A stretch of DNA of 64,000 bases from Candidatus Poribacteria bacterium (lineage in GTDB: Bacteria > Poribacteria > WGA-4E > WGA-3G), in contig CBDBFU010000011.1 of NCBI GenBank assembly GCA_965205025.1, positions 1 through 64,000 of the forward strand, written 5' to 3'. The notes beneath the pieces were generated by a model. That model did no database searches. It worked only from the letters and a program-made list of their open reading frames with translations, and was not told the origin of the DNA. Position 1 is the first letter of the stretch; each line of letters begins with the position of its first letter. Made by a program: the position numbers and the translations under genes. This document shows, piece by piece, positions 5,342-61,458 of the stretch.

Positions 5342-6775
5342 TTGTCTACAGAAAAAATTGGAAGCGATAAGGAAGAATTACTTCGAAAACTTCCTGCAAT
5401 CGAAAGACTTCTGACTCAACCTGAAATCATCAAATTATTTAAATCGTATTCAAGATCATTGATTACGGACATATTGCGTTCTATCGTTTCAGATTTTAGA
5501 TTACAGATCTTAGAAGGTAATACAGAGATTAAAATTCCTAACCGTGATGAATTTCCTGAGTTAGTTATTCAACATCTTGAGGATAAATTAAAACCACCTA
5601 TCCGTACTGTAATAAATGCTACTGGAACTATAACTCATACGAATCTTGGACGATCATTACTACCAGAATCAGTATGTGATAATATTGTGAATGCTGCACA
5701 GAATTATGTTAATTTAGAATACGACTTAGAAACGGGAACAAGGGGACATAGGGATAGACTAACTGAACCTTTACTTCAAGAATTAACAGGTTGTGAAGCA
5801 TCTACTATAGTCAATAATAATGCTGCTGCAGTACTTATTTCATTAAACACGCTTGCACAAGGGAAAGAGGTAATTGTTTCGCGAGGTGAACTGATTGAAA
5901 TTGGTGGTGCATTTCGTATACCTGATGTGATGGCTGCAAGTGGTGCAATTCTTAAAGAAGTCGGGACAACAAATAGAACGCATCTACGTGATTATGAAGA
6001 TGCGATAAATGAGAATACTGCACTGTTTCTGAAAGTTCATCCCAGCAATTATAAGATTGTTGGCTTTACTTCAACTCCAGACATCCGAGAATTAGCACAA
6101 CTTGGGAAGGAACATAATATCCCAATTATGGAGGATTTGGGGAGTGGAGCATTAGTGGATCTATCAAATTATGGTCTTCCATACGAACCTGTTGTAGCAG
6201 ATAGAATTGAAGCTGGAGTTGATATAGTTTCCTTTAGTGGGGACAAATTGTTAGGTGGTCCACAGGCTGGAATAATTGCAGGTCAATCACGGATGATACA
6301 ACAGATACGAAAAAACCCTTTGATGCGAGCATTACGGGTAGATAAATTGACAATTGCAGCACTCTCAACCACACTACAGAATTATCTATATTTAGATAAT
6401 GATATTACTGATGATTTTCCAATGCTACAACGATACATACGTCCTGTAGAGGAATTATATGTTTCTGCTGAATATGTATCTGAGAGATTAAAGAGTGTTT
6501 TCCAAGATAGTATCTCAATTGAAGTATCTGAAACGAAATCCCAAATTGGTAGTGGTTCATTACCTGAAGAAACTTTAGATAGTGTTGCTATAGTGCTAAC
6601 TCCGAAGGTAATTTCTGTAGAAAAACTATCAGAGTTATTCCGGTATGCAAGTACTCCAGTGATTGGACGAATAGAGGATAATAAATTATACTTTGATATT
6701 AGAACGTTATATGATGATGAAATAGATTGTTTAATTCAAACTGCTAATGAGATTTCATCAAGAATTAATGTATAA
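5342..6775 (+). CDS. selA: L-seryl-tRNA(Sec) selenium transferase
   Basis: VINATGTITHTNLGRS, NNNAAA, SRGELIEIGG, EVGTTNRT, FSGDKLLGGPQAG, RALRVDK. Start moved to TTG 5342 (AGGAAG RBS; the promoter overlaps the longer ORF start). Confidence 0.96.
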   Translation: MSTEKIGSDKEELLRKLPAIERLLTQPEIIKLFKSYSRSLITDILRSIVSDFRLQILEGNTEIKIPNRDEFPELVIQHLEDKLKPPIRTVINATGTITHTNLGRSLLPESVCDNIVNAAQNYVNLEYDLETGTRGHRDRLTEPLLQELTGCEASTIVNNNAAAVLISLNTLAQGKEVIVSRGELIEIGGAFRIPDVMAASGAILKEVGTTNRTHLRDYEDAINENTALFLKVHPSNYKIVGFTSTPDIRELAQLGKEHNIPIMEDLGSGALVDLSNYGLPYEPVVADRIEAGVDIVSFSGDKLLGGPQAGIIAGQSRMIQQIRKNPLMRALRVDKLTIAALSTTLQNYLYLDNDITDDFPMLQRYIRPVEELYVSAEYVSERLKSVFQDSISIEVSETKSQIGSGSLPEETLDSVAIVLTPKVISVEKLSELFRYASTPVIGRIEDNKLYFDIRTLYDDEIDCLIQTANEISSRINV

Positions 6776-40529: not shown

Positions 40530-41312
40530 ATGAATTACAATAAACATAATACAAGAAACCGTGTTGGATACATAATCGGTTTGTCTATCTTAATGTTCTC
40601 ATTCCTAATCTTCACTGAAATAGTAAATGCAGAAGATCTTGTTTTACACTTATCATTTGATGAGCTTAATGGAAAAGTATCCAAAGATTCATCTGAATTC
40701 CGAAATGATGTGACTTTTACCGGTTCACCTAAACTTGTTGATGGTAAATTTGGAAATGCAATTGATTTCGATGGAAAAACACATGGTGAAGTTCCTGATC
40801 ATTCCAGTATTGATATTGTTGATGGAATTACAATTGAATTCTGGGCAAAATTAAGAGCTGGAGCAGATGTTCAAACAGGAGTAGAAAAAGGTCCCGCATG
40901 GGGTGCAGGTTTATATACCCTCGCTGCCTTCTATCGTGGTGGTTCTATTCTACAATTCTTTGATTTGCCCGATAATTGTGATGATGAAAATGTTGGTGGA
41001 AGTATACTTGATGGAAATTGGCATTTTTTGGCGGGTACATGGGACGGGAATACCATCAAACTTTACATTGATGGTGTCTTGAATAAACAATTAGATTGTA
41101 AAGGTGAACTTGTTCCAAACAATGGAGCATTATATATCGGTGCAAGGGGAGGAAAAGAACGGTATGTCACCGGCGCACTTGATGAAATAAAGATGTATAA
41201 CTATGCTCTAACTGAGGATGAGTTGCTTACGGATATGGACAATCCATTACTTCTAAACGTAGAACCCAAAGGAAAACTCGCTACTACTTGGGCACGACTT
41301 AAAGGCAAATAA
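40530..41312 (+). CDS. Secreted LamG-like protein
   Basis: Signal peptide, LVLHLSFDE, GKFGNAIDFDG, WHFLAGTWDG, LDEIKMYNYAL motifs; ends VEPKGKLATTWARLK. Confidence 0.9.
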   Translation: MNYNKHNTRNRVGYIIGLSILMFSFLIFTEIVNAEDLVLHLSFDELNGKVSKDSSEFRNDVTFTGSPKLVDGKFGNAIDFDGKTHGEVPDHSSIDIVDGITIEFWAKLRAGADVQTGVEKGPAWGAGLYTLAAFYRGGSILQFFDLPDNCDDENVGGSILDGNWHFLAGTWDGNTIKLYIDGVLNKQLDCKGELVPNNGALYIGARGGKERYVTGALDEIKMYNYALTEDELLTDMDNPLLLNVEPKGKLATTWARLKGK

Positions 41313-41321
41313 GGTTAATTC

Positions 41322-41885
41322 ATGAAGAAATTTGTTTACATCTTACCACTATTATTTATTATACACTATTTTACTGCATGTTCTCTCCTTCCAGGTGCTA
41401 ATCAATCAGGAGAAAATGTTGCTGTTCTTAAGACAGAAAAAGGCACCGTTGTAATTGAGTTCTATGACGAATCTGCCCCTGTGGCAGTTGAAAACTTCAA
41501 AAAACTAATCAGTATGAAATTCTATGATGGATTAACATTCCATCGCATTGTCAACCAACCAGGATTAAATATTGTTCAGGGAGGTTGTCCGAAAGGAGAT
41601 GGAACTGGTGACCCGGGTTGGAAGATTGTTGATGAATATACCAATCCAAATCAACGGAAACACATGAGAGGAACAGTTGCTATGGCACGTGCAAACATGC
41701 CAGACTCCTCTGGAAGTCAGTTCTACATCTGTCTACAACCACAGCCTCATCTTGATGGACAATATACAACCTTTGGTGGTGTTATTCAAGGGATGCATGT
41801 CGTCGATATGTTAGCAATAGGCGACAGAATCACCACCATTCGTTTGGAGGCTAAGTCGAAATATGTTAAGGCAGCAGAGAATTAA
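41322..41885 (+). CDS. Cyclophilin-type peptidyl-prolyl isomerase, lipoprotein
   Basis: FTAC lipobox; FYDGLTFHRI, QGGCP, MARA, GSQFYI, HLDGQYTTFG motifs. Confidence 0.92.
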   Translation: MKKFVYILPLLFIIHYFTACSLLPGANQSGENVAVLKTEKGTVVIEFYDESAPVAVENFKKLISMKFYDGLTFHRIVNQPGLNIVQGGCPKGDGTGDPGWKIVDEYTNPNQRKHMRGTVAMARANMPDSSGSQFYICLQPQPHLDGQYTTFGGVIQGMHVVDMLAIGDRITTIRLEAKSKYVKAAEN

Positions 41886-42504
41886 TGGATATAATTACAT
41901 CTTTTGGTCCATAATATGTGCATTTCTTATTGGTATTTCCGGTTGTGCACAACAAGATCAACAATCATCTTCAACTACTGAATCAAGTGAGACAACTCAA
42001 CAATCCGATACTTCGCAAGAAATATCCAAACCAGAAACACAGGTTGAGAAACCCACGCCTCAAGTTAAACCTGCAATTGACCCAGCGAATGCAATTGCTG
42101 TAATAGAAACGGAAAAAGGAAATATTGAGTTTGAATTCTTTGCATCTGATGCACCAATCACAGCAAAGGCATTTATTAAACATGCAAATCTTAATTATTA
42201 TAAGAACGAGAAATTTCATCGTGTAGAAGAATTAATCGTTCAGGCTGGCTCTGCTTTTGTGGATGACACACTACCCATAGAAAAAGGTGATCATCAACTC
42301 GTTAAAGGTGTCGTATTGATGGCGAAAGTAGAAGGAGAATCCGTCTCAGATGCAGATGAATTCTTTATTTGTAAATCGCCTATTATATTAGATGATGACT
42401 TTACAACGCTTGGTAAAGTTATTAAAGGACTTGATGTATTAGATAACCTTGTAAAAGATGATAAGATTATTAATATCTCAATTCGAGAACGTGATAATGA
42501 ATGA
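41863..42504 (+). CDS. Divergent cyclophilin-like lipoprotein
   Basis: ISGC lipobox, S/T/Q linker, IETEKG, FHRVEE..VQAG, GKVIKGLDV motifs. Confidence 0.82.
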   Translation: MLRQQRINGYNYIFWSIICAFLIGISGCAQQDQQSSSTTESSETTQQSDTSQEISKPETQVEKPTPQVKPAIDPANAIAVIETEKGNIEFEFFASDAPITAKAFIKHANLNYYKNEKFHRVEELIVQAGSAFVDDTLPIEKGDHQLVKGVVLMAKVEGESVSDADEFFICKSPIILDDDFTTLGKVIKGLDVLDNLVKDDKIINISIRERDNE

Positions 42505-42559
42505 ATTTGGGTAATTAGTTTTATAGCATAAACGATACCCTACTAACAAGGAGTGTTGA

Positions 42560-42928
42560 ATGGCATTATCTGTAATTCGGACTGCGCGTCCGAGTCCAGT
42601 TTGGCAAGAAAGTTATGTTAGAGTTGAGAAAGGTCAAAGGATTGTAATTGATGCGGATGGAGCATGGTCACCAGATCTACAAAATCGTACTGGATGGTGT
42701 GGTGCTGATGGGGTTGCTAAGACACCTGCAGGAGATGGATATTTACTCCCAGGTACAAATATTGGTGCACTGATTGCAAAAATTGGGAGTGATGTCTTTG
42801 CTGTCGGATCACGTTACGATAATCCTGCACCAGCTGATGGTGTCATTTTTCTCGCTATGAACGAGAACCCAAATAACAACAACCAAGCCGGAAGTTTACA
42901 AGCACAAATTATCGTTCTTGATGCATAA
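42560..42928 (+). CDS. LecA/PA-IL-like lectin
   Basis: 122 aa, no signal peptide; IDADGAWS, GALIAKIG, FLAMNE, NNQAGSL parallel the PA-IL motifs. Confidence 0.65.
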   Translation: MALSVIRTARPSPVWQESYVRVEKGQRIVIDADGAWSPDLQNRTGWCGADGVAKTPAGDGYLLPGTNIGALIAKIGSDVFAVGSRYDNPAPADGVIFLAMNENPNNNNQAGSLQAQIIVLDA

Positions 42929-43002
42929 TATTCAATACCTTACACTGTATTATAAAACTGTGATATCAATACATTCAGTTATTCAGTTTTAGGAGAAATG
43001 AT

Positions 43003-43449
43003 ATGGATGATAACACAATCCAGGAAGATACCCAACTACCCCCGGTGAGTTTTACTACTTACCTGCAAGATCTTGTCACTACTGCACATCTCTATTTAGA
43101 AGGATTCAAAGATCCTGAGACTGAACAAATGATTGTAAATCTTGGGTTAGTAAAAAGGGTAATTGATACAATAGAGATGTTAGATGAGAAAACTAAAGGG
43201 AATCTAACCGCACCAGAATCTAATTTCTTAGCTAATTCACTATACGAATTGAGAATGAATTACGTCAGAGCAATTAATAACCAAGAAGAGTTATCTAAAG
43301 AAACGGAAACAATTGAATCTGAAGAAAATACATCAACACCTGACTCACCTTCCGATACCGATGAAACTTCAAAGCAAGAAACTTCAGATAATGATACCGA
43401 AGAAGTCCATCCAACTATAGATGGTGAAGAATCCAAAGAAAACCTATAA
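43003..43449 (+). CDS. DUF1844 domain protein
   Basis: IDTIEMLDEKTKGNLT..E..FL...LYELRMNYV motif plus acidic tail. Confidence 0.85.
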   Translation: MDDNTIQEDTQLPPVSFTTYLQDLVTTAHLYLEGFKDPETEQMIVNLGLVKRVIDTIEMLDEKTKGNLTAPESNFLANSLYELRMNYVRAINNQEELSKETETIESEENTSTPDSPSDTDETSKQETSDNDTEEVHPTIDGEESKENL

Positions 43450-43563
43450 ATTTCTAACCATCCATCTCCATTTGACAATTATATCAGATTAACATAGTAA
43501 AATAACCTTTGTAATATAGTGTAAAGAGAGAGAATAACGAGGAGAGCAACATAACGTAGGATA

Positions 43564-44583
43564 ATGAATTATCAACGCAAGATAATTATCGCGTTCTCGC
43601 TATTGATAGGACTATTAATTCTCGGATCCATCGGTTATACAATCACTGAAAGTAACAATCCAACCAAAGATTGGAGTTTACTTGATGCAGTTTTTATGAC
43701 TGTTATAACTCTGACAACAGCGGGACACACCCTTATGGGGATGAGCGAAGGTGGACGTATATTCACCATGTTTCTACTCATCGGTGGATACGGTGTCTTT
43801 GTCTATAGTGTAACAATCGCTATTGCTTTTCTAATTGAAGGACAACTCCTTAGTATATTTAAACATAGAAAAATGATACGTACCGTAGAAAAACTATCAG
43901 ATCATTATATTGTTTGTGGACTCGGTGACACGGGTATACATGTTCTTGAAGAAATGTTAAAATCCGACGTAAATTTTGTTGGGATTGAAGCAGATGAGGA
44001 ACGATTGGAACATCTTGAGGAAACCTTAGATTTTCTATATATTGAGGGTGATGCAACGGATGATGATGTACTCATACGTGCAGGAGTAAAACAGGCAAAA
44101 GGTTTAGTCACTTGTTTGAGTAGAGACCAGGATAATCTCTTTGTCGTGATTTCTGCAAAAAACCTTAACCCAAGAATACGGGTTGTTTCAAAGGCTGTTG
44201 AAAACAACTCTCCTGACAAACTTATCACTGCAGGTGCGGATGAAGTTGTATTACCAGATCATATCGGGGGAATTCGACTTGCATCTGGGATTCTTGAACC
44301 CCATCTAATTGATTTTATTTCAAAGATGCAGGAAAGTCGACAAACTGCACGTTTTGCTGAATCTATCGTCCAAGATGATTCAAAACTCGCAGGTATAACA
44401 TTACGAGAATCAAATATACAAGGAGAAACAGGTCTCGTTGTAATTGCATTAAGAAGTAAGGATGGACAATACATATATAATCCTTCAGGAGATTGGATAA
44501 TTGAAGCTGGAGACGCACTGTTTGTTATTGCAGATCCAAGACAACTCCAACTATTAAATAAACTCACTGGAGATCCTCATTAA
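43564..44583 (+). CDS. Ion channel with TrkA-N/TrkA-C (RCK) domains (MthK/Kch-like)
   Basis: Two TM helices and a pore loop; HYIVCGLGDTG, GDATDDDVL..AG, AGADEVV motifs. Confidence 0.9.
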   Translation: MNYQRKIIIAFSLLIGLLILGSIGYTITESNNPTKDWSLLDAVFMTVITLTTAGHTLMGMSEGGRIFTMFLLIGGYGVFVYSVTIAIAFLIEGQLLSIFKHRKMIRTVEKLSDHYIVCGLGDTGIHVLEEMLKSDVNFVGIEADEERLEHLEETLDFLYIEGDATDDDVLIRAGVKQAKGLVTCLSRDQDNLFVVISAKNLNPRIRVVSKAVENNSPDKLITAGADEVVLPDHIGGIRLASGILEPHLIDFISKMQESRQTARFAESIVQDDSKLAGITLRESNIQGETGLVVIALRSKDGQYIYNPSGDWIIEAGDALFVIADPRQLQLLNKLTGDPH

Positions 44584-46454: not shown

Positions 46455-47804
46455 ATGCCAACCAATTTCATTATTTTTCTAACTGATGACCAAGGATATG
46501 GCGATTTATCATGTATGGGGGCAACTGATTTTAAGACGCCTCATATTGACAGAATGGCATCTGAAGGTATACGTTCCACTGATTGGTACTCTAATTCACC
46601 TGTTTGTTCTCCATCCCGTGCTTCAGTTTTAACTGGAAGATATCCGGCACATGCTGGTGTAAGATCAATTTTATCTGGACATAGAACTGCTACTGGATTA
46701 CCACCCTCCGTTCCAACAATTGCCACTGCTCTTAAGGAACTTGGATATTATACTGCAATGACAGGTAAATGGCATTTAGGTCTTGCTGAAGGTTCAAGGC
46801 CGGAAGATCACGGGTTTGATGATTGGTTCGGTTTCATGGCAGGATGTATTGATTTCTACTCTCATATCTTTTATTGGGGATTGGGAAGACCAGATTTCGA
46901 CCAAACACATGATCTATGGGAAAACGGTGAAGAAATATATCGAAATGGTGAGTATTTTACTGAATTAATTACAGAATATGCCATCAGATATATCCGTAAA
47001 TCTGTTGAACTCGGCAAACCATTTTTCCTCTATGTTCCTTATAACGCCCCACACTATCCAATGCATGCTCCTCAAGAATATATTGATAGGTTTCCAGACT
47101 TGCCTTGGGATAGACAAATAATGGCTGCCATGTTGAGTGCTGTTGATGACAGTGTAGGGGCAATCTTTGCTGAACTTGAACGTCATGGTATTGCGGAGAA
47201 TACATTCTCATATTTCCAAAGCGATAATGGTCCCTCTCGTGAGACTCGTAATTGGTTAGATGGAACACAAGATCCTTACTATGGTGGAAGTGCAGGTAAA
47301 CTAAAAGGTCATAAGTTTAGTTTATATGAAGGAGGAATTCGTTCACCTGGGATATTGCATTGGCCAAAGGAAATTCCACCGGGAAATGTCGTTAATCATT
47401 GTGGTGCTGCTATGGATGTATTTCCAACATTCCTATCCGCTGCTAATGGAGATTTATCAAAATATCAACTCGATGGGTTAAACCAAATAGGGATGGTTTG
47501 TGATGGATGGTATTCACCTCATACGGATATCTTCTGGGAAATGGGAGACCAAACAGCAATGCGGAGAAACGAATGGAAATTAGTCCTTAACGGTAGATTA
47601 GTGGAAGGTGCACCTCCTGAAGATGATGTTCACCTTGCAAATCTTAATGAAGACATGGGTGAAACCAAGAATCTAAAAGACGAGTATCCAGATATTACAG
47701 CTGAGTTAACAGAAGCAGCACAGACGTGGCGAAATGGTATCGAAGAGTATTGGGAAGCACATAAGGAAGAACGTAACGGAACAACTGGTTATGTAAAGAA
47801 CTAA
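46455..47804 (+). CDS. Sulfatase (Cys-type arylsulfatase A-like)
   Basis: TDDQGYGD, CSPSRAS (CxPxR), GKWHLG, SDNG motifs. Confidence 0.94.
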   Translation: MPTNFIIFLTDDQGYGDLSCMGATDFKTPHIDRMASEGIRSTDWYSNSPVCSPSRASVLTGRYPAHAGVRSILSGHRTATGLPPSVPTIATALKELGYYTAMTGKWHLGLAEGSRPEDHGFDDWFGFMAGCIDFYSHIFYWGLGRPDFDQTHDLWENGEEIYRNGEYFTELITEYAIRYIRKSVELGKPFFLYVPYNAPHYPMHAPQEYIDRFPDLPWDRQIMAAMLSAVDDSVGAIFAELERHGIAENTFSYFQSDNGPSRETRNWLDGTQDPYYGGSAGKLKGHKFSLYEGGIRSPGILHWPKEIPPGNVVNHCGAAMDVFPTFLSAANGDLSKYQLDGLNQIGMVCDGWYSPHTDIFWEMGDQTAMRRNEWKLVLNGRLVEGAPPEDDVHLANLNEDMGETKNLKDEYPDITAELTEAAQTWRNGIEEYWEAHKEERNGTTGYVKN

Positions 47805-47903
47805 ATGCTTACTGACAAACATGATGCTTTTGGATACCTCAGAACACTACATTGAATCAGGTAAGCCTACATATATTGCAATTTTGAAGAAAAAGAGTAT
47901 ATC

Positions 47904-48803
47904 ATGACACCTCTTAAATTCGCTTTTATTACGGATACACATCTCTATCCAAATGCTCCACAAAACTTTGCGGGTGGTCTGCAACAACAGATGAATAGTC
48001 TCGCTCTTTATGAAAGAGTTATTGAACAGTTAAATGATTTTGATCCCGCATTCGTTGTTCATGGTGGAGATATCGTTTGTGGCGGGAATAGTTTTGATAT
48101 GTCCACGGAGAAATATGTAGAAGCACTTAATATTGCACATTCACTTGGGGAAAAACTAAAGTCACCAATTTATTATATCCCTGGAAATCACGATCTCGAT
48201 CCAGAAACAGGATCTAAAGTTTCATATCTTGAATGTTTCGGTATAAACAATAGAGGTTCAACTTGCTTCGTTAAAGAAAACATTAGATTTATATTAATGG
48301 ATGCACAAGAAGTTCCAGAAGATCTGACACACGGTTATGTCAGTACAAATCAGCTTGCCTGGGTAGAACGTGAACTAAAAAAAGCTGCTGATTATGGAGA
48401 AGAAATCTTCATCTTTACTCATCAACTTCCCTTTCCAAGCGTGGAATTTCAAGGTGTGGGTTCAAGAATTGCAAATTCTGCAGAGATGCTTGAAGTCGTC
48501 GCCCCTTTTGAACAACAGATTTTAGGATTCTTTTGTGGACACCTACATCTAAATCGTGTATATCGAGAACAAGGTCTATTATGTATCATTACATCTGGTG
48601 TTATATGTTATCCGATGATGTGGCGTCAGGTCCTTGTATATCCTGATAGAATAGAAGTAATGTCTGTTCCTGTCGATTTACCAGATGTTTATGCAGACTC
48701 AGAGGCGGTAAATCCAGACAATAACCCATATTTATCTGGCAGACCAAGGGATCAAGAATTTACGATCCCTCGCATAAACAATCAAGATCATAATTTGGGA
48801 TAA
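47904..48803 (+). CDS. Calcineurin-like metallophosphoesterase
   Basis: TDTH, GGD, PGNHD, GHLH motifs. Confidence 0.9.
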   Translation: MTPLKFAFITDTHLYPNAPQNFAGGLQQQMNSLALYERVIEQLNDFDPAFVVHGGDIVCGGNSFDMSTEKYVEALNIAHSLGEKLKSPIYYIPGNHDLDPETGSKVSYLECFGINNRGSTCFVKENIRFILMDAQEVPEDLTHGYVSTNQLAWVERELKKAADYGEEIFIFTHQLPFPSVEFQGVGSRIANSAEMLEVVAPFEQQILGFFCGHLHLNRVYREQGLLCIITSGVICYPMMWRQVLVYPDRIEVMSVPVDLPDVYADSEAVNPDNNPYLSGRPRDQEFTIPRINNQDHNLG

Positions 48804-48862
48804 TACTCTATTACTATCCATTCTTTGATGATGTAAATCTTTCATCAACACCCAAAATACAA

Positions 48863-49864
48863 ATGATTGAAGTGCAAAACCTCTGCAAAAACTATGGTCC
48901 TTTTCAAGCGTTAAATGATATATCTTTTTCTGTAGAAAAGGGACAAATAGTAGGTTTTCTTGGTCCAAATGGTGCAGGTAAAACTACTACAATGCGGATA
49001 CTCACCTGTTTTATGCCTGCAAGTAGTGGTATGGTTAAAGTTGCTGGATACGATGTCTTTAAAGAATCTAAAGAGGTGAGGAATCGCATTGGTTACCTAC
49101 CAGAGAACATACCTCTCTACACCGAAATGACCGTAACTAAATATCTGTCATACATGGCAAAAATACGCAATGTACCAAGGAAGCAGCTTGGAGAAAGATT
49201 AGATTCGGTTGTAGAATCATGCGGATTAATTGAAAGACGAAATCAGATTATCGGTCAACTGTCACGAGGGTACAGACAACGGGTTGGTTTGGCTCAAGCC
49301 TTAGTTCATGACCCAGAGGTGTTAATTCTTGACGAACCTACATCGGGATTAGATCCCCGCCAAATTGTAGAAATACGGGATCTAATAAAAGGTCTCGGTA
49401 AAGAAAGAACAATACTCTTTAGTACACATATACTTCCAGAAGCAAAAAATACTTGTGAACGGTTATTGGTTATTAGTAAAGGAAAAATTACTGGGGATAT
49501 AGAACTATCAAACGGACGGGCAATCACAGAAACTGAAACAGACATTACAAACGTTGATGCGGATTTCTCTTCTGATCAGAATGAGGTAATTGAGAATACA
49601 TTAACAATTGTCGTTTCTGGTGCAACTAATGACGAAATATTATCTACTCTCAAAAATATACCAGATGTGATAAATGTAGAATTTTCGTCTGATGCACTTA
49701 GAGATTCGTTTAATGTTCGCTTTAGTGCTGTAAAGGATATTCGGGCAGAAGTCGCCAAAACTATCGTTGAACAGGGCTGGAATTTATTGGAAATGTATAC
49801 AAACGAAATGAGTTTAGAAGAACTATTCCTATCTCTAACATCTGAAAATTTAGCACTTGAATAG
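48863..49864 (+). CDS. ABC-2 type exporter ATP-binding protein (GldA-like)
   Basis: GPNGAGKTT, LSRGYRQR, ILDEPTSGLDP, STHIL motifs. Confidence 0.9.
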   Translation: MIEVQNLCKNYGPFQALNDISFSVEKGQIVGFLGPNGAGKTTTMRILTCFMPASSGMVKVAGYDVFKESKEVRNRIGYLPENIPLYTEMTVTKYLSYMAKIRNVPRKQLGERLDSVVESCGLIERRNQIIGQLSRGYRQRVGLAQALVHDPEVLILDEPTSGLDPRQIVEIRDLIKGLGKERTILFSTHILPEAKNTCERLLVISKGKITGDIELSNGRAITETETDITNVDADFSSDQNEVIENTLTIVVSGATNDEILSTLKNIPDVINVEFSSDALRDSFNVRFSAVKDIRAEVAKTIVEQGWNLLEMYTNEMSLEELFLSLTSENLALE

Positions 49865-58932: not shown

Positions 58933-60297
58933 ATGAAACAAACACGAGAAGATTTGACACAAGGTAGCCTATTCCGTCATCTTATTAAGCTTGCAGTACC
59001 AATCACTTTTGGTTACATCCTTCAAGATGCGTTTAATGTTGTAGATATGATTTTTGTTGGAAGACTTGGACCTGCATCCATCGCAGCAGTAGGAATGAGT
59101 GGGAATTTACTCCGATTAATAGGTGTATTCGCACTCGGTATATCAACTGGATCAGGTATTTTAGTTGCACAATATCTTGGCGCGAGAAACTATGCTCAAG
59201 CCGGACATGTGGCAATGCAAGCTATTCTCTTAGCAATATTCTCTGCAGTTGCTGTAGGACTAATCGGTTATCCGTTATCAGAATTTGGGTTGCGGTCATT
59301 AAGAATCAAAGATGCAGAGGTGATAAGACTTGGAACGACCTATATGCACATTATACTCGTAGGAATTAGTACCATGTTTTTGTCGATGACTCTTGGTTCT
59401 ATTTTCCGTGCTGGTGGAGATGCTGTAACACCTACGGTTGTGCTAATTTTCTCTACAATAATAAATATTGTATTAGACCCTCTCTTGATTTTTGGCATTT
59501 GGAAATTTCCTGAATTGGGTGTTGCTGGGTCAGCATACGCAACAATAATTGGAAGAGGATTTGGAGTCGTAGTACTTCTGATTCTAATTTGGGTAGGACG
59601 ATCTCCATTATCATTACGACATGTCCAATTACAACCAGATATGATTGAAATGCTTGACATTTTTAGGTTAGGTATTTATAGTTCTATGCAGGGATTCTGG
59701 AGACATTTGTCACGTCTTGTATTCCTTTGGGTAATTGGCCCCTATGGCAAATTCGCGGTTGCTGCTTATACGATCTGTATGCGATTACGCATTCTGGTGA
59801 TGAATCCTGGTTTCGGAATTGCCAATGCTGTTGCACCTGTGGTAGGTCAGAATATAGGTGCGAATCAGATAGAACGGGCTGAATCAACCACACGTATAGG
59901 TAATATCATTGGTACAACACTCATGTCTGGAATAGGAATTTTATTTCTTCTATTTCCAGATGTGTTTGTAACTATATTCAACGATGATCCTGAGGTAGTA
60001 AGTATTGGATCAATGTATCTTCAATTTCTTTCACTTACATTTGGTTTTATAGCATTTTCATTAGTATTAGGGAAAGCACTAAATGGTGCAGGGGATACGT
60101 TTTCTCCTATGATTATTACATTTGGATCACAAATGGGTGTAGGATTGTTGCTTGTCATTCTGTTTTCACGTATTATAGGATTAAATGGGGCATGGATTGG
60201 AATATCATTTTCCAATGTAGTACAAGGTGTCTCAATGTGGTTTTGGTATCGTACTGGGAAATGGAAAACAATCAATTTAACTAATAAGCAAAGGTAG
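58933..60297 (+). CDS. MATE family efflux transporter
   Basis: About 12 TM helices; DMIFVGRLG, NIVLDPLLIFG, ELGVAGSAYAT, GQNIGA motifs. Confidence 0.93.
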   Translation: MKQTREDLTQGSLFRHLIKLAVPITFGYILQDAFNVVDMIFVGRLGPASIAAVGMSGNLLRLIGVFALGISTGSGILVAQYLGARNYAQAGHVAMQAILLAIFSAVAVGLIGYPLSEFGLRSLRIKDAEVIRLGTTYMHIILVGISTMFLSMTLGSIFRAGGDAVTPTVVLIFSTIINIVLDPLLIFGIWKFPELGVAGSAYATIIGRGFGVVVLLILIWVGRSPLSLRHVQLQPDMIEMLDIFRLGIYSSMQGFWRHLSRLVFLWVIGPYGKFAVAAYTICMRLRILVMNPGFGIANAVAPVVGQNIGANQIERAESTTRIGNIIGTTLMSGIGILFLLFPDVFVTIFNDDPEVVSIGSMYLQFLSLTFGFIAFSLVLGKALNGAGDTFSPMIITFGSQMGVGLLLVILFSRIIGLNGAWIGISFSNVVQGVSMWFWYRTGKWKTINLTNKQR

Positions 60298-60324: not shown

Positions 60325-61158
60325 ATGGGGGATAAAGGGTACACAAACTCTGAACTTGTAGTTTCTGCAGAGGCATTAAAGAATGATATAGATGATGAAT
60401 CTCTCTGTATTGTAGATACGCGACCAACGCATGAATATATATTGGGACACATACCTGGGGCACTACACCTTGATCTTTTTGGTTTGAGTCTAATTAATAC
60501 CAGAAAAGATATGTTTGACACTTTTATGTGGATGATTGCATATTTATTCCAACAGAGAGGTATTGATTCATCAAAAACTATCATATGGTATGAGGATATA
60601 TCTGGCACACGTGCATCACGCGGATTATGGTTCTGCGAATATTTAGGTCACTCAAACACAAAGCTACTTGACGGAGGATTCAAAGCATGGGTGGTTGCTG
60701 ATGGCAAGGTTTGTTTAGAAGGGGTTGAACCCCCTGAAGTGTCAGAATTTCCTATCAATGCAAATCCAAGTTCACACATGGATGCAGATGTGATTAATGA
60801 TTTACTTAACAAAGAGGATTTTATCGCTCTGGATACCAGAACGGATGATGAACATTATGGTAGAGTAGCTCGTGCTAAACGACCAGGTGCAATTCCCGGT
60901 TCTGTACATATTGAGTGGTTAAATAATCTTGATGAAAACGGGGCATTCAAACATGCAGATGAGTTACGACAGATGTATGAAACTGTAGGGGTGACACACG
61001 AAAAACACGTGATGTGTTACTGACAAGGTGGATACCGTTCTTCCCAGTCCTATTTAGCTTTGCGTCTCTTGGGTTATCCAAAAGTTGGCAATTATATAGG
61101 TTCTTGGAAAGAGTGGGGAGACCGGCTGGACTTGCCGGTTGAAATACCTGTCGAATAG
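60325..61158 (+). CDS. Two-domain rhodanese/sulfurtransferase, probable selenoprotein (UGA read as Sec at 61021)
   Basis: GHIPGA, LLDGG and GAIPGS motifs. The frame continues past TGA as [35 protein letters not shown]...PVE to TAG 61158, completing the active-site loop and the C-terminal rhodanese signature. Confidence 0.88.
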
Positions 61159-61175
61159 ATACAGTTACTATAAAA

Positions 61176-61224
61176 TACACCTCTATCATAGAATTTCTAA
61201 GCATAAATACTATGATAGAGGTGT
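61176..61224 (+). terminator. Hairpin after the sulfurtransferase (terminator-like)
   Basis: ACACCTCTATCATAG/CTATGATAGAGGTGT perfect 15-bp inverted repeat. Confidence 0.65.
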
Positions 61225-61250
61225 TCTATTTAATTATATATATATATATA

Positions 61251-61414
61251 TATGCGTCAATTTTGGAGAGAAAATGTTATACCCAGGCCGGTAGGTGCGG
61301 TTTCCTAACCGCACTAAATTTGTGCTAAATCTTTGATTGAAAGCCCTTCGTATAATCCGCTTCGGTTAGGAAACCGAAGCTACCGTTCCTGGATGTGCAC
61401 TAAATTGACGCATA
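61251..61414. mobile_element. TIR-bounded cassette carrying an inverted GTAG-REP pair (REPIN-like)
   Basis: TATGCGTCAATTT...AAATTGACGCATA 13-bp perfect TIR. Contains GTAGGTGCGGTTTCCTAACCGCAC and inverted GTAGCTTCGGTTTCCTAACCGAAGC. Flanking direct repeat GTGTTCTATTTAAT at 61221 and 61417. Confidence 0.75.
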
Positions 61415-61458
61415 TAGTGTTCTATTTAATGATATAACACCATCAAAATATGTACTGG

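Follow-up and report, generated by a model that had tools for sequence, protein, structure and literature searches.

A Poribacteria rhodanese with a predicted selenocysteine at its catalytic position and a conserved RNA fold that may bring a proposed, displaced SECIS hairpin close to the UGA codon

Rhodanese sulfurtransferases have been placed on published selenoprotein lists more than once. The passages devoted to them introduce 'Rhodanese-related sulfurtransferase' (COG2897) as a new selenoprotein family of three sequences in the Sargasso Sea study of 2005 (PMC1088965), list it again under cd01449 in the Global Ocean Sampling study of 2008 (PMC2398784) and, in a 2026 review, distinguish five rhodanese selenoprotein forms, including 'form 4 (rhodanese-related sulfurtransferase), UxxG' (PMC13188914). 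Here, we describe a gene of this type in a 64,000-nucleotide (nt) stretch of DNA, hereafter the window, from a Candidatus Poribacteria bacterium (assembly GCA_965205025.1, contig CBDBFU010000011.1, positions 1 to 64,000 of the forward strand). As rhodanese sulfurtransferases stand on these lists, the protein type was already known, and the Poribacteria protein belongs to a known selenoprotein family and is not a novel kind of selenoprotein. It provides a clade-wide, well-supported example for a family otherwise known from sequence lists, and public Poribacteria annotations cut it at 232 amino acids (aa), losing the active site. Searches of open-access full text for Poribacteria together with selenocysteine (Sec), and for rhodanese selenoproteins, returned no paper on a Poribacteria Sec rhodanese.

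The sections that deal with the position of the bacterial selenocysteine insertion sequence (SECIS) place it directly 3′ of the UGA and state that some predicted elements fall outside the model (PMC13188914 section 5; PMC8659212). As given in the part of the review that defines it (PMC13188914, Fig. 2A legend), the bacterial SECIS (bSECIS) model has a loop of 3-9 nt with a G in its first two positions, an upper stem of 4-16 base pairs (bp), a minimum free energy (MFE) of −7.5 kcal/mol or lower, and an apical loop that lies 16-37 nt from the UGA. Search programs enforce the 16-37-nt distance, and a hairpin immediately after the UGA is thought to be necessary for bacterial Sec decoding. The explanation that best accounts for the Poribacteria locus as a whole is, with good confidence, a selenoprotein gene whose recoding is directed by an RNA fold specific to the Sec forms; the signal for recoding looks like a variant of the bacterial SECIS that has not been described before.

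Under translation table 11, the open reading frame (ORF) at 60325..61023 encodes 232 aa and ends in ...HVMCY-TGA, and the same frame continues for another 44 codons to a TAG (Table 1). The original prediction, made from the letters of the window and a list of its ORFs, had joined the two parts into a 277-aa Sec-containing rhodanese with the TGA in place of the catalytic cysteine (Cys), and all of its coordinates are right. The 277-aa product carries two Pfam Rhodanese (PF00581) domains (120.8 bits against a cut-off of 22.2; E 4e-35) and aligns over its full length with the solved structures 1uar, 1e0c, 3hwi and 3aax. At residue U233, both 1uar and 1e0c have their catalytic Cys, so that the catalytic Cys of two-domain rhodaneses is found in this protein only if Sec is counted as its equivalent. 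The C-terminal motif GSWKEWG is encoded 3′ of the TGA.

The TGA is fixed in a large part of the phylum, well beyond what chance would give. A collection of species genomes yielded 304 stretches that encode a relative of the protein, and in all 80 of the best 80 loci that were kept, every one from a Poribacteria assembly, the codon is TGA and is followed by a nearly identical tail of 44-46 residues. When 176 genomes of the phylum were searched, 156 gave a match, and each of the 150 matches listed contains exactly one in-frame TGA. The TGA-carrying matches come from the families f1, f2 and f3, where 148 of 151 genomes were matched, and in the sister family f4 of the same order the codon is TGC or TGT in 4/4 genomes examined. 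Despite this Cys-form rhodanese, selB is present in four of five f4 genomes. Outside these genomes, a pattern scan of metagenomes returned 50 stretches, 38 of which are Sec-form rhodaneses and 12 chance matches elsewhere; 34 of the Sec forms cover the full 129 nt and are 47-88% identical to the window protein.

Beyond the TGA, the residues are conserved and many third codon positions vary (1.4-1.7 bits at the glycine codons +2, +3, +17 and +26), and frame and amino acids are kept down to 47% identity with no frameshifts and no further stops. As judged from these substitutions, the 44 codons are under purifying selection. Because the TGA is fixed across independent assemblies and the tail is conserved with synonymous variation, we exclude both a sequencing error and pseudogene decay, either of which, according to the original prediction, would have undone it. 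Its expectation that homologs carry Cys or TGA at this column is borne out as well. The close relatives found by a protein search, about 90 in number, are 231-251 aa long and span no more than 83-84% of the query, which is the truncation by standard pipelines that had been foreseen. The search also found relatives with 50-58% identity that are full length (274-299 aa) and carry the motif C-[YH]-C-Q-G-G-Y-R-S, with Cys at the Sec column in eight full-length homologs. The records of the orthologs are named 'sulfurtransferase', 'rhodanese-like domain-containing protein' or 'hypothetical protein'.

These short database entries are what speaks for a true stop at the TGA, in which case a 232-aa protein would be the functional product, or the gene would be a pseudogene, and the downstream conservation would have another cause. 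Such a product, however, would have neither the catalytic loop nor the GSWxEW motif, the homologs with Cys are not shortened, and the 44 codons keep their frame and residues with synonymous variation over the whole range of identity, all of which makes a true stop very improbable.

The genome (5.66 Mb, 33 contigs, 95% complete) encodes the Sec machinery. The original prediction relied on selA in the same window (Table 1) and proposed a search for selB, selC and selD; selB was found at 366 bits (cut-off 242), tRNA-Sec directly downstream of selB (Rfam, 78.5 bits; ARAGORN, tRNA-SeC with anticodon UCA), and selD is present and itself contains one in-frame TGA. According to ARAGORN, tRNA-Sec is the sole tRNA with a UCA anticodon among 41. 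TGA terminates 384 of the 2206 ORFs of at least 300 codons, and the genetic code is therefore the standard one. A reading of the TGA as one of the standard amino acids (Cys, Trp or Gly), through either near-cognate decoding or a change in the genetic code, has nothing specific in its favor, although plain read-through would likewise keep the downstream frame. It is at odds with the use of TGA as a stop in these long ORFs, with the only UCA tRNA being tRNA-Sec encoded beside selB, with the location of the TGA at the catalytic Cys, a classic position of Sec/Cys exchange, and with the dedicated conserved RNA structure that accompanies the TGA (see below). We regard it as barely conceivable. The sequence evidence thus indicates that the gene almost certainly encodes a selenoprotein with Sec at the catalytic position.

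By homology, the protein is a sulfurtransferase with an RhdA-like loop type. It scores 109.6 bits against the 250 required by the SseA 3-mercaptopyruvate sulfurtransferase equivalog NF008557, 34.7 against 115 for NF041203 (rhodanese_LYCAU '(seleno)protein'), which places it outside the latter family, and 21.3 against 805 for NF045694 (TsoB). The enzyme chemistry is inferred from Cys rhodaneses: a thiosulfate-like donor would transfer sulfane sulfur to the Sec selenolate, and the resulting enzyme-Se-S(-), a selenenyl-sulfide/persulfide-type intermediate, would pass it to an acceptor. Sulfur transfer by a more nucleophilic and oxidation-resistant catalytic residue is the role that we favor, without strong conviction, and selenium trafficking comes second as a rather doubtful one; protection against redox damage is a further conceivable role. 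The original prediction also envisaged a CxU arrangement. The Cys at position −2 to Sec is indeed present in the window protein and at 96 of 100 Poribacteria loci (Ser at the remaining four), but among the 38 metagenome Sec forms this residue is Cys in 21 and Pro in 17. As the Cys is not conserved among Sec forms, a selenenylsulfide formed with it is not essential to the family, and an obligatory C-x-U redox pair is not supported by the alignments.

To locate the recoding signal, we enumerated hairpins with a stem of at least 4 bp, a loop of 3-9 nt with G in its first two positions, and an energy of −4 kcal/mol or lower in Poribacteria sequences (101 in total, 94 distinct). Within 16-37 nt after the UGA, no rule-fitting hairpin is common to ten or more of the 94 distinct sequences. 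A hairpin that fits the loop and stem rules is found in 93/94 of them, but at 103 nt from the UGA (GACCGGC UGGAYYU GCCGGUY, about −11.5 kcal/mol). Two candidates nearer to the UGA were rejected. The 65 nt that directly follow the UGA fold no better than their shuffles (z +0.60), and a small hairpin 6-7 nt after the UGA (59-71/94 sequences, −4 to −5 kcal/mol) would be buried in the ribosome while the UGA occupies the A site, and would compete with the larger structure described below. An Rfam scan of positions 60950-61450 returned no meaningful family, only spurious snoRNA and miRNA matches to an inverted repeat that follows the stop codon.

For comparison, we used eight further genes of this genome that are candidates for encoding selenoproteins: five paralogs that share the motif D-E-[AS]-C-U-[GA]-S-G-K, two HMA proteins and one rhodanese-ThiF protein, each chosen for an in-frame TGA inside a Pfam domain or for membership in the five-fold paralogous family. 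Their hairpins have 6-8 bp, lie 20-23 nt from the UGA and carry the loops AGGU, AGUU, GGA or CGUGCU. The hairpin of selD, read by eye, has 4 bp and the loop CGGGU, 16 nt from the UGA.

RNAalifold and single-sequence folds show a common architecture downstream of the UGA, and the MFE fold of the window has the same shape. With the first letter of the UGA counted as 1 (n corresponds to window position 61020 + n), an unpaired spacer is followed by a long irregular hairpin (P1), a 3-nt linker and a short hairpin (P2), which is the rule-fitting hairpin found above (Table 1). The length of the spacer is constant, with no indels in 101 + 34 sequences. P1 is closed by an 8-bp basal helix (15-22/89-96; 61035-61042 and 61109-61116), and P2 displays a 7-nt loop, UGGACUU (61127-61133; UGGAYYU in relatives), in which G108, G109 and A110 are invariant. 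Of the bSECIS rules, P2 agrees with those on loop, stem, loop G and MFE and departs from the one on distance (103 nt as opposed to 16-37 nt). Single-sequence MFE folds contain the P2 pairs in 77-78 of 78 cases and the basal pairs of P1 in 62-63 of 78.

The pairing is supported by conservation and covariation. In the Poribacteria set, 91.4% of the cells of the alignment are paired, compared to 33-48% after the partners have been shifted by 1-3 columns; all sequences pair throughout the basal helix of P1, and 99.5% of the P2 cells are paired. A combined alignment of 86 rows (81 distinct), consisting of the window, 32 of the 80 genome loci hand-picked for diversity, 19 of 20 loci from f2 and f3, and the 34 metagenome sequences, is paired in 85.0% of cells compared to 34-47% when slid. 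In this alignment, four pairs of the P1 base and P2 show compensatory double changes: 18-93 (CG 58, UA 19, UG 3, other 1) and 21-90 (UA 71, CG 6, UG 3, other 1) in the P1 base, and 102-118 (CG 47, UA 34, other 0) and 103-117 (CG 74, AU 5, other 2) in P2. The change at position 118 replaces Val with Ile and is paired with a silent GAC to GAU change at 102. A synonymous-site analysis of 81 sequences found several codons to be invariant at the nucleotide level, namely TAC(-1), TAC(+4), TCT(+6), AAA(+29) and CCG(+38) in 81/81, and CGG(+34) and CTG(+35) in 80/80; 4-fold sites other than these frozen codons have an entropy of 1.3-1.9 bits. Of the invariant codons, TAC, TCT and AAA support P1, and CGG, CTG and CCG support P2.

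The metagenome Sec forms make the same structure at the same positions, with 8/8 basal P1 pairs in 32 and 7/8 in two, and with 7/7 P2 pairs in 25, 6/7 in seven and 5/7, in a shifted register, in two. The fold z-scores range from −1.0 to −5.2 for eight Sec forms and from −0.06 to about −1.4 for four Cys forms, which adopt a different fold and in which only 2-5 of the 7 P2 pairs are possible. P2 is thus absent from the Cys forms and is therefore tied to Sec. Taken together, it is likely that this conserved, covarying RNA structure serves Sec decoding. As a separate observation, the summed contig depth in four metagenome runs is 10-100 times higher over positions 61075-61140, which encode W-K-E-W-G and contain P2, than elsewhere in the gene, as would be the case if many strains that occur together collapsed onto a segment of identical nucleotide sequence.

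When the UGA occupies the A site, about 10-12 nt of the mRNA beyond it are inside the ribosome, in the mRNA channel. The base of P1 would then be located at the ribosome entrance with P2 beside it, and with P1 bypassed, the UGA and the P2 loop would be separated by a path of 11 + 3 + 7 = 21 nt, which is within the 20-23 nt of the canonical elements of this genome and within the 16-37-nt rule. Considering that P2 resembles the SECIS hairpins of the genome and fits the model in all but distance, and that this path is 21 nt long, we propose a 'split' SECIS in which P2 would bind SelB as the SECIS hairpin and P1 would loop out the intervening 82 nt as a spacer; P1 may also slow the ribosome. On the sequence data, P2 is rather more plausible than not as the SelB site that P1 brings near the UGA. 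We also lean, if only slightly, towards the complete proposal of a natural split SECIS, with P2 about 100 nt downstream and a 21-nt path through the looped-out P1, that has been conserved from Poribacteria to unrelated environmental bacteria whose proteins are 47% identical. Such a displacement is plausibly explained by the coding sequence: the codons after the catalytic residue would be too constrained for a GC-rich hairpin with a GG loop, and those for G-D-R-L-D-L-P-V can hold one.

Several points weigh against this proposal. The published view, in the sections cited above, is that the SECIS must be immediately downstream of the UGA (PMC13188914 section 5; PMC8659212), and no natural bacterial SECIS at about 100 nt was found in open-access full text. 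The four Cys forms, which are the only Cys-form DNA controls, retain 5-6 of the 8 pairs in the base of P1, so that part of the P1 pairing comes free from the coding sequence. The fold of the window itself is weak (z −1.04; 31/200 shuffles fold as well), and the structure was derived from and counted on the same, related sequences. The middle of P1 is poorly conserved, with several pairs unpaired in 40-70% of the sequences. Finally, in 7/34 metagenome Sec forms, P1 contains a hairpin of borderline quality whose loop starts with G and lies 35-38 nt from the UGA, and a canonical-like SECIS within P1 is conceivable in these seven.

The last point bears on an alternative in which Sec is inserted but SelB recognizes a non-canonical structure nearer to the UGA, either P1, with its apical loop G-N-U-A-Y around +53, or some other one, while P2 would serve in ribosome pausing, protection of the mRNA 3′ end or regulation. 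P1 starts 11 nt after the UGA, which is reportedly the spacing of the minimal E. coli SECIS, its apical loop begins with G in many sequences, and in 17-22 of 94 such a loop sits on a clean 7-8-bp stem at 48-49 nt, to which the seven metagenome hairpins may be added. The upper part of P1 is, however, its least conserved part (pairs 48-62, 49-61 and 51-59 are unpaired in 25-43 of 94 sequences), and the loop sequence varies. No element is conserved as well as P2, which has the invariant loop bases G108, G109 and A110, is similar to the canonical SECIS hairpins found in this genome and is absent in Cys forms. Recognition of P1 or of another proximal structure by SelB is unlikely, and P2 is retained as the candidate SECIS hairpin.

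The distribution of Sec and Cys forms was examined in an unrooted maximum-likelihood tree of about 193 columns with the Sec/Cys site masked. The tree contains 58 distinct rows, near-duplicates being left out: the window, 5 of the 80 and 7 of the 20 Poribacteria Sec loci, the 4 f4 Cys loci, 26 metagenome Sec forms with at least 185 residues and 15 Cys proteins from the protein search. Sec forms are scattered among Cys forms, and the branches with good support require four or more changes between the two; the Poribacteria Sec forms group together (support 87/84) and adjoin a Cys clade that includes f4. Because all Sec forms have the same elaborate RNA arrangement and are interleaved with Cys forms, the Sec form probably originated once and then reverted to Cys several times. 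A Cys paralog with two rhodanese domains and no in-frame stop, 31% identical to the Sec protein, is encoded at C16:85629-86459 (L104). The MATE-family gene upstream of the rhodanese gene is found on the same strand in 75/80 related loci and is a possible operon partner, and the downstream genes are not conserved.

Table 1 Coordinates of the rhodanese locus and of other features. Positions refer to the window unless preceded by a contig handle (C).
Feature	Position	Strand	Remarks
selA (selenocysteine synthase)	5342..6775	+	599 bits, cut-off 268; in the window
MATE-family efflux gene, directly upstream of the rhodanese gene	58933..60297	+	Pfam MatE
Rhodanese coding sequence, two-domain, 277 aa	60325..61158	+	ATG 60325; TAG 61156-61158; predicted Sec is residue 233
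Predicted Sec codon UGA	61021..61023	+	Active-site loop C-Y-U-Q-G-G-Y-R-S, catalytic Cys position
Spacer, 11 nt unpaired, UGA to P1 (4-14)	61024..61034	+	RNAalifold and single folds
P1, long irregular hairpin, 82 nt (+15 to +96)	61035..61116	+	RNAalifold and single folds
P2, 7-bp hairpin (100-106/114-120), candidate SECIS	61120..61140	+	In 93/94 Poribacteria sequences
Inverted repeat, perfect 15 bp, 18-nt loop	61177..61224	+	19 nt after the stop; unique in the genome (self-match only)
Five TGA paralogs (L130-L134)	C4:14956-16908; C7:39059-40645, 40647-42185, 42166-43719, 47464-48921	+ (C4); - (all on C7)	
Further candidates (L135-L140, L142)	C23:110639-111490, C12:2291-3193, C25:50978-51865, C12:409585-410772, C4:104046-105092		

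The inverted repeat after the stop codon is probably a transcript-end hairpin; a simple terminator scan made no call there because the loop exceeds 8 nt. It is followed by an element of about 170 nt (61240-61415) that is preceded by an (AT)n run and bounded by 14-nt terminal inverted repeats (ATATGCGTCAATTT...). The element has 122 blastn matches in the genome, of which six or more extend over nearly its whole length with 86-90% identity and many cover sub-units of 27-35 nt, and looks like a member of a family of miniature inverted-repeat transposable elements or of a family resembling repetitive extragenic palindromic sequences.

Elsewhere in the genome, the five paralogs used for comparison are 485-650 aa long, with one in-frame TGA each, and share a canonical SECIS hairpin, GAGGGC AGGU/AGUU GYCCUC, with its loop 23 nt after the UGA. 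No Pfam family matched any of the five and no NCBIfam family matched the three that were tested, and on sequence they may represent an unnamed selenoprotein family that has expanded in this genome. Further candidates have a Pfam domain that extends across the TGA: SelD, the MoeB-like rhodanese-ThiF protein, two HMA metal-binding proteins (GMTUxxC), one AhpC/TSA protein and, separately, a tandem AhpC/TSA gene that has two TGAs. A coding-potential scan for genes with an in-frame TGA gave 479 candidates, which are very noisy, consist mostly of antisense or chance frames and do not amount to a full list; one of them, C11:133471-134262, belongs to no family and looks like an artefact. As far as these predictions go, the genome appears rich in selenoproteins.

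The Sec-specific, covarying structure suggests that a hairpin some 100 nt away can work if a helix folds the spacer out. If so, the 16-37-nt rule for the bacterial SECIS would concern the length of the path and not the linear distance, and SECIS-based searches would systematically miss selenoproteins whose active-site codons cannot hold a hairpin. A displaced hairpin would also account for the replacement of Cys by Sec at sites where constraint on the codons that follow keeps them from encoding one, would turn the way in which SelB and the ribosome measure distance into a testable statement, and suggests a design rule for recombinant selenoproteins.

At the protein level, the Poribacteria rhodanese has close structural relatives in Azotobacter vinelandii RhdA (1e0c, E 1e-33) and the Thermus thermophilus rhodanese (1uar, E 7e-37), both of which match it over the full length and have two domains. 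The catalytic residue of both stands in the same column as here, and the loop is of the type C-Q-x-x-x-R-S known from RhdA; in the Poribacteria protein, Sec replaces the Cys and is followed by Q-G-G-Y-R-S. Of the NCBIfam selenoprotein families, NF041203 (form 3, CxU) has a rhodanese domain and C-x-U in common with it, but is single-domain, with 126 positions. The rhodanese-related sulfurtransferase selenoproteins, as the passages on them describe the family, are of the same two-domain thiosulfate/3-mercaptopyruvate type with UGA at the catalytic Cys and have widespread Cys homologs, as is the case here. U-Q-G-G fits the UxxG motif of form 4 as the review describes it (PMC13188914), a comparison made by description and not by sequence. 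Fixation in three Poribacteria families finds no mention in those passages. The Sargasso Sea study draws a SECIS for its rhodanese (PMC1088965, Fig. 3). The text passages place the SECIS immediately after the TGA, whereas the sole conserved SECIS-like hairpin of the Poribacteria gene is 103 nt away.

At the RNA level, P2 compares with the canonical bSECIS of the E. coli fdhF type in its 7-bp stem, its 7-nt loop with G at position 2 followed by another G, and its location inside the coding region, and differs from it in a linear distance of 103 nt where the canonical element has 16-37 nt. In 2005, Su, Li and Gladyshev (Nucleic Acids Research) reportedly found that E. coli can use a distant SECIS in the 3′ untranslated region if base pairing holds it near the UGA. 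The split SECIS proposed here would use the same principle of setting distance by pairing. The engineered element is artificial, whereas the Poribacteria one would be natural, situated in the coding region and conserved across the family.

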